From: Nitrososphaerota archaeon
GTDB taxonomy: Archaea > Thermoproteota > EX4484-205 > JAAOZP01
Direction of reading: 5' to 3'
NCBI GenBank assembly: GCA_011605725.1
Contig: JAAOZP010000012.1
Location: forward strand, 1 to 64,000
Length of the DNA: 64,000 nucleotides
In this document: positions 59,088 through 62,365 of the stretch, in pieces
Layout: every line of letters starts with the position of its first letter
How positions within the stretch are numbered: the stretch's first letter is position 1
Translations under genes and position numbers: made by a program
Notes under the pieces: model-generated
The model's input: only the letters and a program-made list of their open reading frames with translations
Told to the model about the DNA's origin: nothing
Databases searched by the model: none

Positions 59088-60275
59088 CTATGATGATTGA
59101 AAATAGTTTGCGAGATCAACCCAAGCTCCTGAAGAATCTAGACAGACATCGGCAAAAACAAGGATTCCTGAAGCTCCTCCCCTCATCGCCCCCTTTACTG
59201 ACTCGACCCACTCCCAGCCAGGCATGTTTCCAGTTCTTGATAACGATCCGCCGACGCAAGGCACGACCAGAATTTCACCATTATTCTTCTCAACCTGCTC
59301 AACTATCATCCTAGTAGTGTCCTCAACCCATTTAACAGGCATTTCGTGATCCCTATGATAAAGCATGGGGCAAACAACGTCGACAAGACCCTGTCTCACC
59401 CACTCGCCCCAGTCGACACCCATGGTCTGCCTGTTCCAATTCAAATCGTAAGAAACGTCAGCTGATAGAGTTATCTCCGGGTTAATCTGTTTGACAGCAT
59501 CCCTGATTTCCCTCAAGAAACCCGTTACGATCTGCACCCTCCAACTTATCCACTCGCTCCTCAAGCTTCCCCCGGCCAGCACGTCTTCAGGCCAGTTCTG
59601 TACCTTTCTGCCGATAAATGATTCAAAAGACTTTTTCGCGCTCTCGCTGAAGTCAGCCTCAATGCCCGGTGGGAAACCGAAATCATCCTCTATGTTTATA
59701 CCGTCAACACCATACTCCTGCACTAGTTCGATAATGTAGGACTTTATATAGTTCCTAGCGCCCTCGCTAGCCGGAGACAAGTAGTACCAGCCGTATGGGT
59801 TAAACGGGCCGTGTGAAAGCTGGTCCTCACCCTTCTCGTTAACTATTCCCCAGTCAGGATGTTGAAGAAGCACCGACCTGCTTGTTCTGAAGCCCAGAAC
59901 CCACGCCCAGACCCTCAGGCCGTTCCTATGGCTTTCTTCAACAACTATTTTCAAAGGATCTTCATCGCTTTCAAAATTATTAAGGTAATCCATGTCAACC
60001 GGAACGATTTTACTCCTGTAGTCAGCCAACCCTCCAGCATGGATTACAAAGGGAAGCACAATATTGAACCCGCTATTCTTGATTTTGCTTATGTAGAATG
60101 TGAGGTTTCTCGCAACAGACCTGTTGGGAAACTCGTACATGTATAGGAATACTCCTCTCACCTCCGGTTTAGGAGGCTCTTCAACCCTCATCATCCTGTT
60201 TAAGAAGAAATATGAAGCAGTCATCAGAAGCACTGTCAGAATTGGAAAAACAAGCATTATGCTTCTCTTAAACAT
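59088..60275 (-). CDS. GHL10 (DUF187/YddW-like) glycoside hydrolase with N-terminal anchor
   Basis: EVRGVF, DPLKIVVEESHRNGLRVWAW, YGVDGINIEDD, WISWR, WVRQGLVDVVCPMLY. Confidence 0.8.
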   Translation of the reverse strand: MFKRSIMLVFPILTVLLMTASYFFLNRMMRVEEPPKPEVRGVFLYMYEFPNRSVARNLTFYISKIKNSGFNIVLPFVIHAGGLADYRSKIVPVDMDYLNNFESDEDPLKIVVEESHRNGLRVWAWVLGFRTSRSVLLQHPDWGIVNEKGEDQLSHGPFNPYGWYYLSPASEGARNYIKSYIIELVQEYGVDGINIEDDFGFPPGIEADFSESAKKSFESFIGRKVQNWPEDVLAGGSLRSEWISWRVQIVTGFLREIRDAVKQINPEITLSADVSYDLNWNRQTMGVDWGEWVRQGLVDVVCPMLYHRDHEMPVKWVEDTTRMIVEQVEKNNGEILVVPCVGGSLSRTGNMPGWEWVESVKGAMRGGASGILVFADVCLDSSGAWVDLANYFQSS

Positions 60276-60436
60276 GCAATCTTAAGGGAGGAGACGTTTA
60301 AAAGCTTAATCGATAAATCAACGTGGAAAAGAAAAACCCATATAGCCTGATGATAACGACTGCGGCCAACCCTGTGAAACGCATGCCGATTCTCTAGAAG
60401 AATGAATCTAAATCCTTAGTGTAAGCTTCCGTTGAA

Positions 60437-61105
60437 CTAGCCGGTGGACTGCTCCTCGTAATATTGTTTCACAAGCTCCATAAAGTGCTTCCAATCCCAG
60501 TTCACTCCAGGGTCATAGTGATGACTCTTGCCGCCGCCGACGCTGGGGTCAGAAGGATCTGGAACCTGGTTGTGACCTATTACCCCACTTCCCTGAGTAG
60601 GGTCTGCGGGGGCAAGGCCCTCAGGGTGTTGAAGCGAAACATTATACTTCTTAAGCAAGTAGGCCACCAGCTTAGCGGAAGCCTTATACTCCTCCTCCGT
60701 AAAAATCTTCCGGTCAGCGTAGCCAGCGTGCTCGATACCAATAGAATGCTCGTTGTAAGCCCAGTTGCCAGCGTGCCAAGCAATATCCTTCTCCTTAACC
60801 ATCTGGTAAACCATGCCATCGTAACCAACAATGTAATGCGAAGAAGCCTTAGCCCGAGGATCTTTAAACCAGTTTAATGCAGCCTGCGCATCACCCTCTA
60901 CAACATGAATAATGATCCACCTCACTTTCAACCCGTTAGCCTCCCTATTGCTCTCGGAAAAATTGGACTGGAGAGCTGGCTCCCAGGCGGCTTCAGGATA
61001 ATCTGTAGCCTCAGGTTTCGAGCCCAGCTTGAAAAGGAAAACAACCATGAGAAGTGGAAGAACTAGCGTAAGCAAGAGGAGGGGACGGTTCCTCATTTGA
61101 AGCAA
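60437..61105 (-). CDS. N-acetylmuramoyl-L-alanine amidase (amidase_2 family) with N-terminal anchor
   Basis: IIIHVVEG, ASSHYIV, AWHAGN, SIGIEHAG, IGHNQV, HYDPG. Confidence 0.9.
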   Translation of the reverse strand: MLQMRNRPLLLLTLVLPLLMVVFLFKLGSKPEATDYPEAAWEPALQSNFSESNREANGLKVRWIIIHVVEGDAQAALNWFKDPRAKASSHYIVGYDGMVYQMVKEKDIAWHAGNWAYNEHSIGIEHAGYADRKIFTEEEYKASAKLVAYLLKKYNVSLQHPEGLAPADPTQGSGVIGHNQVPDPSDPSVGGGKSHHYDPGVNWDWKHFMELVKQYYEEQSTG

Positions 61106-61159
61106 GATTCTTCACGCCGTATTTAAGAATTCCGTTTTAAAGCGCAATTTTAAATAGTA

Positions 61160-62365
61160 GTGTCTTCATGTGCTTTTCGAGGAAAAGTGCTAAGGATCAG
61201 TGTTTTCACACTCTTACTGATGCTCTTGACCTCAGCAATAAGGACTACGCTAAGTGCCTCAGGCTCCTCTGGAAAAAAGAGTTTCTACGTAGGAGTCTGG
61301 CTAGGAATGTATAGCGACTACTGGCCTAGTGAGAAAACAGAATGGTTGAGAAAGGTTGACGAAGCCTTCAAGTCCTTCAGGGAAGCCGGGATCGACGCCA
61401 TCTATTTTCTAGTTAAAGACCCTTGGGGATATGTTTACTACGAATCCAAGTATGCTCCATTGTCTGAGAAATACAGCTGGGATCTTTTAAGAGAGGTTGT
61501 GGCGAAGGCTAGGGAACATGGTCTCCAAGTATACCCGTATGTAAACGCGTTGGCAGAGGGGGAGACTCAGCCGAACTTCTACCTGAAGGAACATCCTGAC
61601 CTAGCGGTTTCATCTGCAAACGGTGAGAACGGTTGGGTTGACCCATCTAGCGGAGAATACGTTAATAGACTGATATCTATCGTTGAAGAAATCGTTTCAA
61701 ACTATGATGTAGACGGGTTGCAGTTGGACAGGATAAGGATGCCGGGGCCAGTAATAAGGGCGAAAGCCAGTGAAAAACTCTACACGGAGACAACTGGGCT
61801 CACCCCAGCTAACGATGAGAAAAAGTGGCAGGAGTTCGTGAGAGTATTTGAAAAAGTTAAATCAATAGATATGAGCCTGAGGCTTTCCGCCGCGGTTTTC
61901 CCATCCCCTTCGAACGCGGCTTTAAACCAGCTTCAAGACTGGAAGAAATGGGTTGAAGAAGGATGGGTTGACTACGTATGCACGATGGCTTACGCACAGG
62001 GGTTTTACACATTCAAGGCTTATGTAGATGAGGAGAAGGAGGCTTGCGAGCCTGGAAAACTATATGTGGGAATAGGCGCGTGGCAATTGTCCGCGTCTGA
62101 ATTGAAAAAACAGATAAAGTACGTTGTAGTCGACTCAGGACTACCTGGAGTACTATTGTTTAACGGGGATTCTCTACTCAGCAATACGGAGCTTTTAAAC
62201 GCCGTAAAGGAGGCGAAGGAGGGAAAGTTTGGGGAAGACTCATCCTCCTTCCCGTTTATGCTTAGCGCCTCCTCAGCCACCATACTGCTCTGCACAACGC
62301 TATTCTTGCTCCACCTACATGGAAAAAAGCGGAGGAAAAACGTTTCTTTAAAGAAAGCTTATTAG
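61160..62365 (+). CDS. GHL10 glycoside hydrolase with signal peptide and C-terminal TM anchor
   Basis: DLLREVVAKAREHGLQVYPY, WVDP, YDVDGLQLDRIR, QDWKKWVEEGWVDYVCTMAY. Confidence 0.82.
   Translation: MSSCAFRGKVLRISVFTLLLMLLTSAIRTTLSASGSSGKKSFYVGVWLGMYSDYWPSEKTEWLRKVDEAFKSFREAGIDAIYFLVKDPWGYVYYESKYAPLSEKYSWDLLREVVAKAREHGLQVYPYVNALAEGETQPNFYLKEHPDLAVSSANGENGWVDPSSGEYVNRLISIVEEIVSNYDVDGLQLDRIRMPGPVIRAKASEKLYTETTGLTPANDEKKWQEFVRVFEKVKSIDMSLRLSAAVFPSPSNAALNQLQDWKKWVEEGWVDYVCTMAYAQGFYTFKAYVDEEKEACEPGKLYVGIGAWQLSASELKKQIKYVVVDSGLPGVLLFNGDSLLSNTELLNAVKEAKEGKFGEDSSSFPFMLSASSATILLCTTLFLLHLHGKKRRKNVSLKKAY

Follow-up and report, generated by a model that had tools for sequence, protein, structure and literature searches.

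We analyse a 64-kb stretch of archaeal DNA, the first 64 kb of the 281-kb contig JAAOZP010000012.1 (contig C1 of the host assembly, G000; 'the window' below means this whole stretch of 64,000 nucleotides), and focus on three adjacent genes at 59088-62365 that encode an Amidase_2 enzyme flanked by two GHL10 glycosidases. Our central proposal is that this trio works at the surface of a hot-spring Thermoproteota archaeon as the first stage of a pathway for feeding on peptidoglycan, a reading to which we give a probability of roughly 0.68. A preliminary description of the same DNA had placed three open reading frames at these positions and had suggested a coupled surface system for scavenging or attacking bacterial cell walls. 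Pfam recovers the three frames as GHL10, Amidase_2 and GHL10, and Kyte-Doolittle hydropathy confirms an N-terminal hydrophobic segment in each protein. The coupled action on peptidoglycan is supported by gene fusions in other archaea, by murein-specific genes elsewhere in the same genome, and by the finding that carriers of these genes lie within the genomes that hold MurQ and NamZ. The locus is laid out as follows:

59088-60275, minus strand: P0001, GHL10 glycosidase of the DigH/Cwp19-like 'DD' type (395 amino acids; PF02638)
60276-60436, minus strand: spacer with a TATA-like box at 60296-60305 (minus-strand reading), from sequence reading
60437-61105, minus strand: P0002, predicted N-acetylmuramoyl-L-alanine amidase (Amidase_2; 222 amino acids; PF01510)
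61106-61159: divergent spacer of 54 bp with TATA-like boxes for P0002 and P0003, from sequence reading
61160-62365, plus strand: P0003, GHL10 glycosidase of the 'D-R-I-R' type (401 amino acids; PF02638)

The amidase P0002 matches PF01510 over residues 58-194 (E 2e-32, 112.8 bits against a cut-off of 26) and is the sole Amidase_2 protein found in a scan of the host genome (113.7 bits). The zinc ligands proposed for it earlier hold up: H67, H178 and D198, together with the catalytic glutamate E125, are invariant in 14 aligned archaeal and bacterial sequences. E125 aligns with the glutamate of the AmpD motif SIGIE and D198 with the aspartate of TDPG, and AmpDh2 and AmpDh3 align as well. In the amidase tree the archaeal sequences stand together on one side of a branch (SH-aLRT, the Shimodaira-Hasegawa-like approximate likelihood ratio test, 89), and the alignment reveals two insertions shared by the archaeal enzymes and without counterpart in the actinobacterial ones. 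Judged by its sequence, P0002 likely cleaves the bond between N-acetylmuramic acid (MurNAc) and L-Ala.

Both flanking glycosidases match PF02638 well above its cut-off of 27.9 bits (P0001, E 9e-31 and 107.5 bits; P0003, E 5e-22 and 78.7 bits). The only clear solved relative of P0001 by sequence is Cwp19 (5oq2, E 8e-12), a peptidoglycan lytic transglycosylase (PMC6016235) in which an Asp-Asp (DD) motif at the end of strand beta-4 has been proposed to be catalytic or to stabilise an intermediate (PMC5765458). P0001 keeps this motif (E196-D197-D198-F199, matching D195-D196 of Cwp19) and also the conserved tyrosine, which lies in a PMLY motif (Y306; Y297 in Cwp19). For P0003, an AlphaFold model (predicted local distance difference test, pLDDT, 84.3) again finds Cwp19 as its best match in the PDB (E 2.5e-19, TM 0.66/0.73), with the next-best matches, the GH153 domains of PgaB that act on poly-N-acetylglucosamine, weaker by about seven orders of magnitude (1e-11 to 1e-12). 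Identity between Cwp19 and P0003 is 17% across the structural alignment. The end of strand beta-4 in P0003 reads L189-D190-R191-I192-R193, so the first aspartate is kept and the second is replaced by arginine; counterparts of Cwp19 Asp196 and of other pocket residues are missing, and the conserved tyrosine is present (TMAY, Y278). The preliminary description had likened the two glycosidases to E. coli DigH, which breaks down the denuded glycans left by amidases (PMC12288456). The characterised GHL10 enzymes DigH and Cwp19 both have the glycan of peptidoglycan as their substrate. The likeness to DigH stands for P0001, which retains the DD motif, but not at this site for P0003, which departs there from both DigH and Cwp19.

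How are these proteins placed in the cell and how are their genes read? P0003 has a second hydrophobic segment at its C-terminus (residues 366-384, followed by a Lys/Arg tail), while hydropathy gives P0001 an N-terminal signal or anchor and no C-terminal one. Pfam finds no cell-wall-binding domain in P0001, P0002 or P0003, and a search of the three proteins against NCBIfam returns sub-threshold matches only (PgaB at 20 bits; AmpD at 50 bits, with a cut-off of 143). A TATA-like box precedes a plausible start of each gene by about 25-27 nt. The box at 60296-60305 lies about 25 nt upstream of the P0001 ATG, which suggests that P0001 has its own, probably leaderless, transcript; the box at 61120-61127 lies about 27 nt from an ATG at 61096, the likely true start of P0002; and that for P0003 lies at 61148-61156. 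Because of its distance from this last box, GTG 61187 is preferred to GTG 61160 as the likely true start of P0003. Judged by archaeal promoter geometry, the trio is probably read as three separate transcripts, leaderless or with short leaders. An operon was considered and set aside in view of the separate TATA-like boxes and the divergent orientation of two of the genes.

Fusion of the two activities in other archaea provides the clearest link between them. In G024, a member of a sister family, an Amidase_2 and a GHL10 domain lie within one open frame (L015:5163-6758), and a search with this protein returns about 30 clusters that bear both domains, either as proteins of about 590 amino acids (Amidase_2-GHL10) or as proteins of 860-925 amino acids (GH18-Amidase_2-GHL10). 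All fused clusters with a source name come from archaeal metagenome-assembled genomes (MAGs), labelled Sulfolobales, Desulfurococcaceae, Thermoproteales, Thermoprotei or Thermoproteota; several are unnamed. A scan of 185,579 species-representative genomes for the fusion gives 11 loci, all 11 of them archaeal. The GHL10 part is of the P0003 type (47-49% identity); every fused archaeal GHL10 domain has the D-R-I-R of P0003, and in P0003 as in the fused domains an invariant N-A-L-[AS]-E-G-[ED] loop follows strand beta-3. Among 19 homologues of P0001, none is fused to an amidase or adjacent to one.

A second series of fused proteins (P0165-P0176) joins the same GHL10 type to a PGRP/T7-lysozyme-like Amidase_2 that cannot be aligned with P0002. 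In the amidase tree, the two-domain fusion is nested among free forms and the tri-domain forms make up a clade of their own. With two unrelated Amidase_2 subtypes and these tree positions, the fusion arose more than once, which is good evidence that the amidase and GHL10 activities act on one substrate. The fused clusters (P0146-P0153 and P0165-P0176) mostly have a C-terminal membrane anchor, with the tri-domain P0148 lacking one. As for their surroundings, the tri-domain gene of Sulfolobales MAGs immediately follows a five-gene Opp-type ATP-binding cassette (ABC) importer, GH84 and GNAT, and another fused gene has peptidases, a BNR protein and PfkB as neighbours, the same kinds of gene as in the window. 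G023 has the arrangement of the window, with an amidase gene next to, and divergent from, that of a P0003-type GHL10. This recurrent fusion and adjacency with Amidase_2 suggests that the GHL10s may prefer amidase-treated, denuded glycan.

Genes for MurNAc catabolism, which could use what the enzymes release, are found on other contigs of the genome. MurQ scores 364.2 bits against TIGR00274, above the equivalog cut-off of 302 (C3:63161-64030). It belongs to a cluster at C3:59273-64109 in which genes for a BadF/BadG-type kinase, NamZ (a GH171 exo-beta-N-acetylmuramidase; NamZ_N E 1e-69, NamZ_C E 2e-41), a PIG-L deacetylase and a GNAT protein lie on one strand and MurQ is divergent; an Lrp/AsnC regulator adjoins the cluster and a D-2-hydroxyacid dehydrogenase lies about 2 kb off. 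Export signals are absent from all five proteins encoded in this cluster. NagA (320.7 bits, cut-off 225.65) is on C16. AnmK (313 bits) is on C4, where it adjoins Opp-type ABC transporter genes and a PF00144 beta-lactamase-family serine hydrolase, which may act as an AmiE-like amidase or as a D-peptidase (C4:159629-164528). AnmK is the kinase for anhydro-MurNAc, a product of lytic transglycosylases, and its presence would fit products of this kind. To our knowledge, murein sugar metabolism is the only setting in which MurQ, NamZ and AnmK act. Candidates for a NagZ-like enzyme, a MurNAc kinase and a MurNAc importer are, respectively, the five GH3 genes of the genome, the BcrAD_BadFG-family gene by NamZ and the Opp-type ABC genes by AnmK. 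The phosphotransferase-system (PTS) transporter MurP was not seen, in scans that included no search aimed at it. Adjacency of NamZ and MurQ recurs in G033, G095, G174, G202 and G294.

Some further features of these regions are recorded here for their own sake. At C16:23286-27753, NagA adjoins an FAD (flavin adenine dinucleotide)-linked oxidase and both subunits of an electron-transfer flavoprotein, which resembles the arrangement of electron-bifurcating D-lactate dehydrogenases; the MurQ reaction yields D-lactate as its by-product. GH36-like and GH3 genes lie just past the AnmK region on C4. Two paralogues of about 727 amino acids with GHL6 and GH42M-like domains are found at window 9897-12077 (minus strand) and at C3:64064-66250, the latter adjoining MurQ.

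We now consider whether the surface genes and the catabolic genes travel together, using 61 relatives of the host and 301 genomes sampled evenly across the phylum. MurQ is present in 17 of the 61 relatives and NamZ in 15, in essentially the same genomes, and the 17 MurQ-bearing relatives include every carrier of the amidase (6/6), of a P0003-type GHL10 (7/7) and of a P0001-type GHL10 (9/9). Across the phylum sample, Amidase_2 is found in 13/301 genomes and NamZ in 32/301; NamZ occurs in 10 of the 13 Amidase_2 carriers vs 22 of the 288 other genomes, and at family level in 6/9 vs 5/42.

All three gene families are typically bacterial and the assembly is in 20 contigs, and one could ask whether the locus is simply bacterial DNA that was mis-binned or mis-assembled into an archaeal genome. 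We regard this as hardly credible. The assembly (2.23 Mb, completeness 93%, contamination 1.7%) holds small- and large-subunit ribosomal RNA genes of archaeal type on contig C9 as well as TFB genes. Tetranucleotide use on the 281-kb C1 agrees with that of the other contigs (r = 0.995), and a palindrome, AGCGCGC(GC)T, occurs on C1 and on nearly all contigs of the assembly, C9 included. The locus recurs with its flanks in four other assemblies of the same genus and also on an 858-kb contig of a genus relative, so the gene order is common to independent relatives. The nearest relatives of the amidase and the GHL10s that have a source name are archaeal MAGs at 54-86% identity (labelled Candidatus Brockarchaeota, Thermoproteota, Nitrososphaerota or Thaumarchaeota), while bacterial relatives of the amidase reach 50% or below and have SH3 or FN3 domains attached; the insertions common to the archaeal amidases are not in the bacterial ones; and the promoters of the locus look archaeal. 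The preliminary description had named a bacterial or chimeric contig as a finding that would undo it, and by ribosomal RNA, composition, palindrome and synteny the contig is archaeal.

Remodelling of the cell's own murein or pseudomurein by the trio was also considered and is ruled out: no penicillin-binding-protein transpeptidase and no GT51 transglycosylase were found in the 93%-complete genome, and we take the host lineage not to be a pseudomurein producer. With no murein in the archaeon, the substrate must be foreign. Two observations on the rest of the window belong here as well. Six AGCGCGCGCT palindromes and two AGCGCGCT palindromes lie within about 6 kb (window 24745-30753), a region of lower GC content with few long open reading frames, and none of this type is found inside or beside the amidase locus. 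Transfer RNA and Rfam scans of the window gave no matches.

Putting these elements together, we infer the following scheme, with its substrates, its sequence of steps, its route of uptake and its nutritional purpose. The exported zinc amidase P0002 would cut the MurNAc-L-Ala bonds of bacterial murein, be it debris, turnover fragments or the exposed walls of neighbours, and this would free the stem peptides and leave denuded glycan. The two TIM (triosephosphate isomerase)-barrel enzymes P0001 and P0003, bound to the membrane by an N-terminal segment and by a C-terminal anchor, respectively, would then cut the glycan to oligosaccharides at the archaeal surface. The fragments would be imported next, for which Opp-type ABC systems are candidates. 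In the cytoplasm, NamZ and GH3 enzymes would free MurNAc and N-acetylglucosamine (GlcNAc), and a MurK-like kinase and AnmK would produce MurNAc-6-phosphate, which MurQ would convert to GlcNAc-6-phosphate and D-lactate, with NagA leading onward to central metabolism. Stem peptides would go to a D-aminopeptidase and other peptidases.

The history of the locus within the genus is informative about how tightly its parts depend on each other. The host genome retains the trio in its ancestral, intact form, and the genus is in the course of losing the amidase. G010 (C7:1-10000) keeps the gene order, with an amidase interrupted by five stop codons and a broken P0003 orthologue. In G016 (C4:90900-94300), the equivalent of window 60317-61116 is gone, with three bases between the flanks, so that the amidase gene is deleted; the divergent spacer (window 61106-61159) is kept despite this, and no GC-palindrome filler is evident at the junction. 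About 40 N-terminal amidase codons are left in G007 (C42:122800-126300), where the catalytic domain is gone, and G002 (C54:35500-39000) has no amidase and an apparent frameshift in its P0003 orthologue. The amidase was lost independently in these genomes, by clean deletion, by partial deletion or through the build-up of stop codons. P0001, by comparison, has stayed intact wherever the locus is present in the genus (five genomes). P0003 tends to decay along with the amidase, and P0001 is the more independent partner. Such turnover looks like that of a patchy, environment-dependent trait.

Several of these results weigh against the feeding pathway that we propose. The amidase is deleted or decayed in 4 of the 5 genus members that hold the locus, and the GHL10 pair often persists afterwards; the pair therefore does not strictly need an amidase of its own, the amidase is dispensable, and any claim of an obligate three-part machine is weakened. 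The trio appears as separate transcription units and not as an operon, no importer adjoins it, and the island around it is mostly of fucose- and sialic-acid-type catabolism. The genomes in which the genes co-occur are related and not independent, so the counts above overstate the case. The second aspartate of the DD motif is replaced by arginine in P0003 and in the fused GHL10s, and the chemistry may therefore differ. Finally, DogH of Deinococcus, also a GHL10, is reported to act on starch (PMC9967864), so membership of GHL10 does not by itself fix the substrate.

This last point leads naturally to the question of whether both GHL10s act on some other glycan altogether (N-acetylhexosamine polymers, starch-like glucans, or host or environmental glycoconjugates), with their adjacency to the amidase a leftover of gene order. 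Besides the starch-active relative and the missing DD motif of P0003, it would explain why the pair stands without an amidase in G007, in G016 and on the 858-kb contig, why the genome has five or six GHL10-like genes, why a fucosidase, a sialidase-like protein and sugar kinases lie nearby, and why the next-best structural matches of P0003 are poly-GlcNAc-active PgaB domains. We nevertheless consider it unlikely. The P0003-type domain is fused to two Amidase_2 subtypes and to GH18 across several archaeal orders, MurQ is in every genome of the 61-genome sample that has either GHL10 type, and the P0003 orthologue is broken in 2 of the 4 genomes that lost the amidase (G002 and G010) where P0001 never is, which ties P0003 to the amidase.

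If murein is the substrate, the purpose is the next question, and the preliminary description had offered scavenging and attack side by side. Bacteria-killing peptidoglycan hydrolases are known from archaea, and their patchy gain and loss has been read as an arms race (PMC12352652); the present amidase is patchy too, with 13 carriers in 301 phylum genomes and repeated loss in the genus, and the enzymes are predicted to be exported. A module that is primarily an antibacterial weapon for lysing live competitors or prey, with catabolism of the products secondary, is nonetheless improbable in our estimation. The enzymes are membrane-anchored and not diffusible, they have no domain for binding a cell wall, MurNAc catabolic genes accompany the amidase in nearly all of its carriers, and one fused homologue lies in an importer operon. 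An amidase paired with a hydrolase of denuded glycan would also lyse slowly, and outer membranes would shield Gram-negative targets. Scavenging is thus favoured over attack because of the cytoplasmic MurQ, NamZ, AnmK and NagA, the co-occurrence, the importer beside the fusion, and membrane tethering without a wall-binding domain; of the two options attack is the less supported. Attack and feeding are compatible and not mutually exclusive, and the authors of the archaeal hydrolase study leave the choice between them open (PMC12352652). A bolder form of the feeding pathway, in which the archaea are contact-dependent feeders on live bacteria whose tethered enzymes (single fused proteins in related lineages) open the walls they touch before the cell imports and burns the wall sugars and peptides, and in which the 'D-R-x-R' GHL10 represents a new, amidase-dependent glycan-cleaving chemistry, would amount to predation by archaea; it strikes us as a long shot.

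Beyond the trio itself, the surrounding genes include three that could process its products:

49320-50114, plus strand: DppA-type D-aminopeptidase (Peptidase_M55), cytoplasmic (PF04951, E 7e-76)
53240-53992, minus strand: CE4 polysaccharide deacetylase, cytoplasmic by hydropathy (PF01522, E 1e-16)
62496-63830, minus strand: PmbA/TldD-family metallopeptidase, cytoplasmic (Pfam)

A genus relative shows synteny between the DppA-type gene and the GHL10 pair, and synteny of the CE4 gene is seen in G010 and L049. A TldD/PmbA pair adjoins the locus in a genus relative and also lies near the fused gene P0171, which makes the PmbA/TldD metallopeptidase a candidate peptide-processing accessory. After uptake, the DppA-type enzyme could cleave stem peptides that contain D-amino acids. 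Hydropathy reveals no N-terminal export segment in DppA, CE4, the fucosidase, the two sugar kinases or TldD. The preliminary description had DppA and CE4 handling the products of the trio: both genes are real, but they are cytoplasmic and belong to a general glycan-catabolism island, so the role is plausible and not specifically supported. By its gene content the amidase locus lies within a broad island of this kind.

Other features of the window can be listed briefly. Window 36567-45586 holds sialic-acid- and fucose-type genes, for a GFO/IDH/MocA oxidoreductase, a DHDPS/NanA-family lyase, a DHO_dh-Fer4 protein and an L-fucose isomerase, together with a BNR_2 sialidase-like protein without export signal, an Abhydrolase_7/acetyl esterase and a radical SAM (S-adenosylmethionine) protein. 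Window 54296-57391 (plus strand) encodes a 1031-amino-acid membrane protein that has one FtsX-type permease domain and eight predicted transmembrane segments; no ATPase gene adjoins it, and on the 858-kb contig and in G010 its gene again neighbours the GHL10 pair. In bacteria, wall hydrolases are under the control of FtsX proteins. At window 5847-8665 (plus strand), an Mg-type P-type ATPase is spread over two overlapping frames, 5847-6548 (profile positions 13-225) and 6545-8665 (profile positions 240-865), a pattern that may stem from a frameshift, from an error in sequencing or from a split gene.

How does the proposed pathway compare with known systems? The closest in logic is that of E. 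coli, where AmiA/B/C strip the peptides and DigH (YddW) degrades the denuded glycan (PMC12288456), and P0001 has the DD of DigH. The differences are that in E. coli Amidase_3 enzymes act during division on the septal wall of the cell itself and the archaeon would use an Amidase_2 with two GHL10s on its surface, that P0003 has D-R for D-D, and that archaeal relatives fuse both activities in one polypeptide. The murQ-murR-murP-amiE-nagZ-namZ operon of B. subtilis (PMC8054146) likewise removes peptides and sugars outside the cell and then takes the MurQ route, and in the archaeon MurQ and NamZ lie above curated cut-offs and GH3 enzymes are present. In contrast to B. subtilis, the archaeal genes are spread over at least four loci, NamZ appears cytoplasmic and not secreted, a BadF/G-type kinase and AnmK would phosphorylate in place of MurP, an Amidase_2 would stand in for AmiE with endo-acting GHL10s added, and the wall used would be foreign, not the cell's own recycled one. 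Cwp19 of C. difficile (PMC5765458, PMC6016235) is the best sequence or structure relative of both GHL10s and is also attached to the surface, but it is an autolysin held by CWB2 repeats, the identity of P0003 to it is low and the pocket residues differ. For the archaeal fusions, S. aureus Atl (PMC6262408) offers a similar union of a MurNAc-L-Ala amidase and a glycan-cutting endo-beta-N-acetylglucosaminidase in one polypeptide; there the glycosidase is of another family, and Atl is an autolysin that acts in the cell's own division and has wall-binding repeats.

Among archaea, the nearest precedent is the group of modular peptidoglycan hydrolases surveyed by Strock et al. 2025 (PMC12352652), such as the zoocin-like M23 enzymes of Halogranum salarium; these too are exported enzymes of bacterial origin, aimed at bacterial peptidoglycan and patchily distributed in archaea without murein. 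The enzymes tested there are secreted, diffusible killers from halophiles, and the present trio is membrane-tethered, comes from thermophilic Thermoproteota and co-occurs with catabolic genes. That survey required at least one catalytic and at least one cell-wall-binding domain and did not include GHL10 (PF02638) in its catalytic list (PMC12352652). The trio, in which Pfam finds no binding domain, falls outside this definition of a modular hydrolase, and with PF02638 unlisted as well the module lay outside the survey. Full-text searches found no paper on an amidase-GHL10 module, on archaeal MurNAc catabolism or on archaeal MurQ; the paper describing Brockarchaeota does not mention peptidoglycan, muramic acid or amidases, and the NamZ paper does not mention archaea. 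What is known already, then, is all of the enzyme families, the logic of each step and archaeal peptidoglycan hydrolases as such. New are the host domain, the fusions of amidase and GHL10 (some with GH18 as well), the D-R subtype of GHL10, the tethering to the membrane and a full route assembled in organisms without murein.

Peptidoglycan is among the largest pools of microbial necromass, and its breakdown is credited to bacteria and eukaryotes. If our proposal is true, a sizeable minority of Thermoproteota, as gauged by the 32 of 301 sampled genomes with NamZ, would live partly on the bacterial wall, which would provide an archaeal link in the recycling of carbon and nitrogen in hot springs and sediments as well as a testable archaeal-bacterial interaction. 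The thermostable amidase-glycosidase fusions could have practical use, and the D-R GHL10 subfamily would offer a tractable case for the mechanism of a glycosidase family without a CAZy class. Our picture of archaeal peptidoglycan hydrolases would widen from secreted, wall-binding killers to feeding enzymes tethered at the cell surface.

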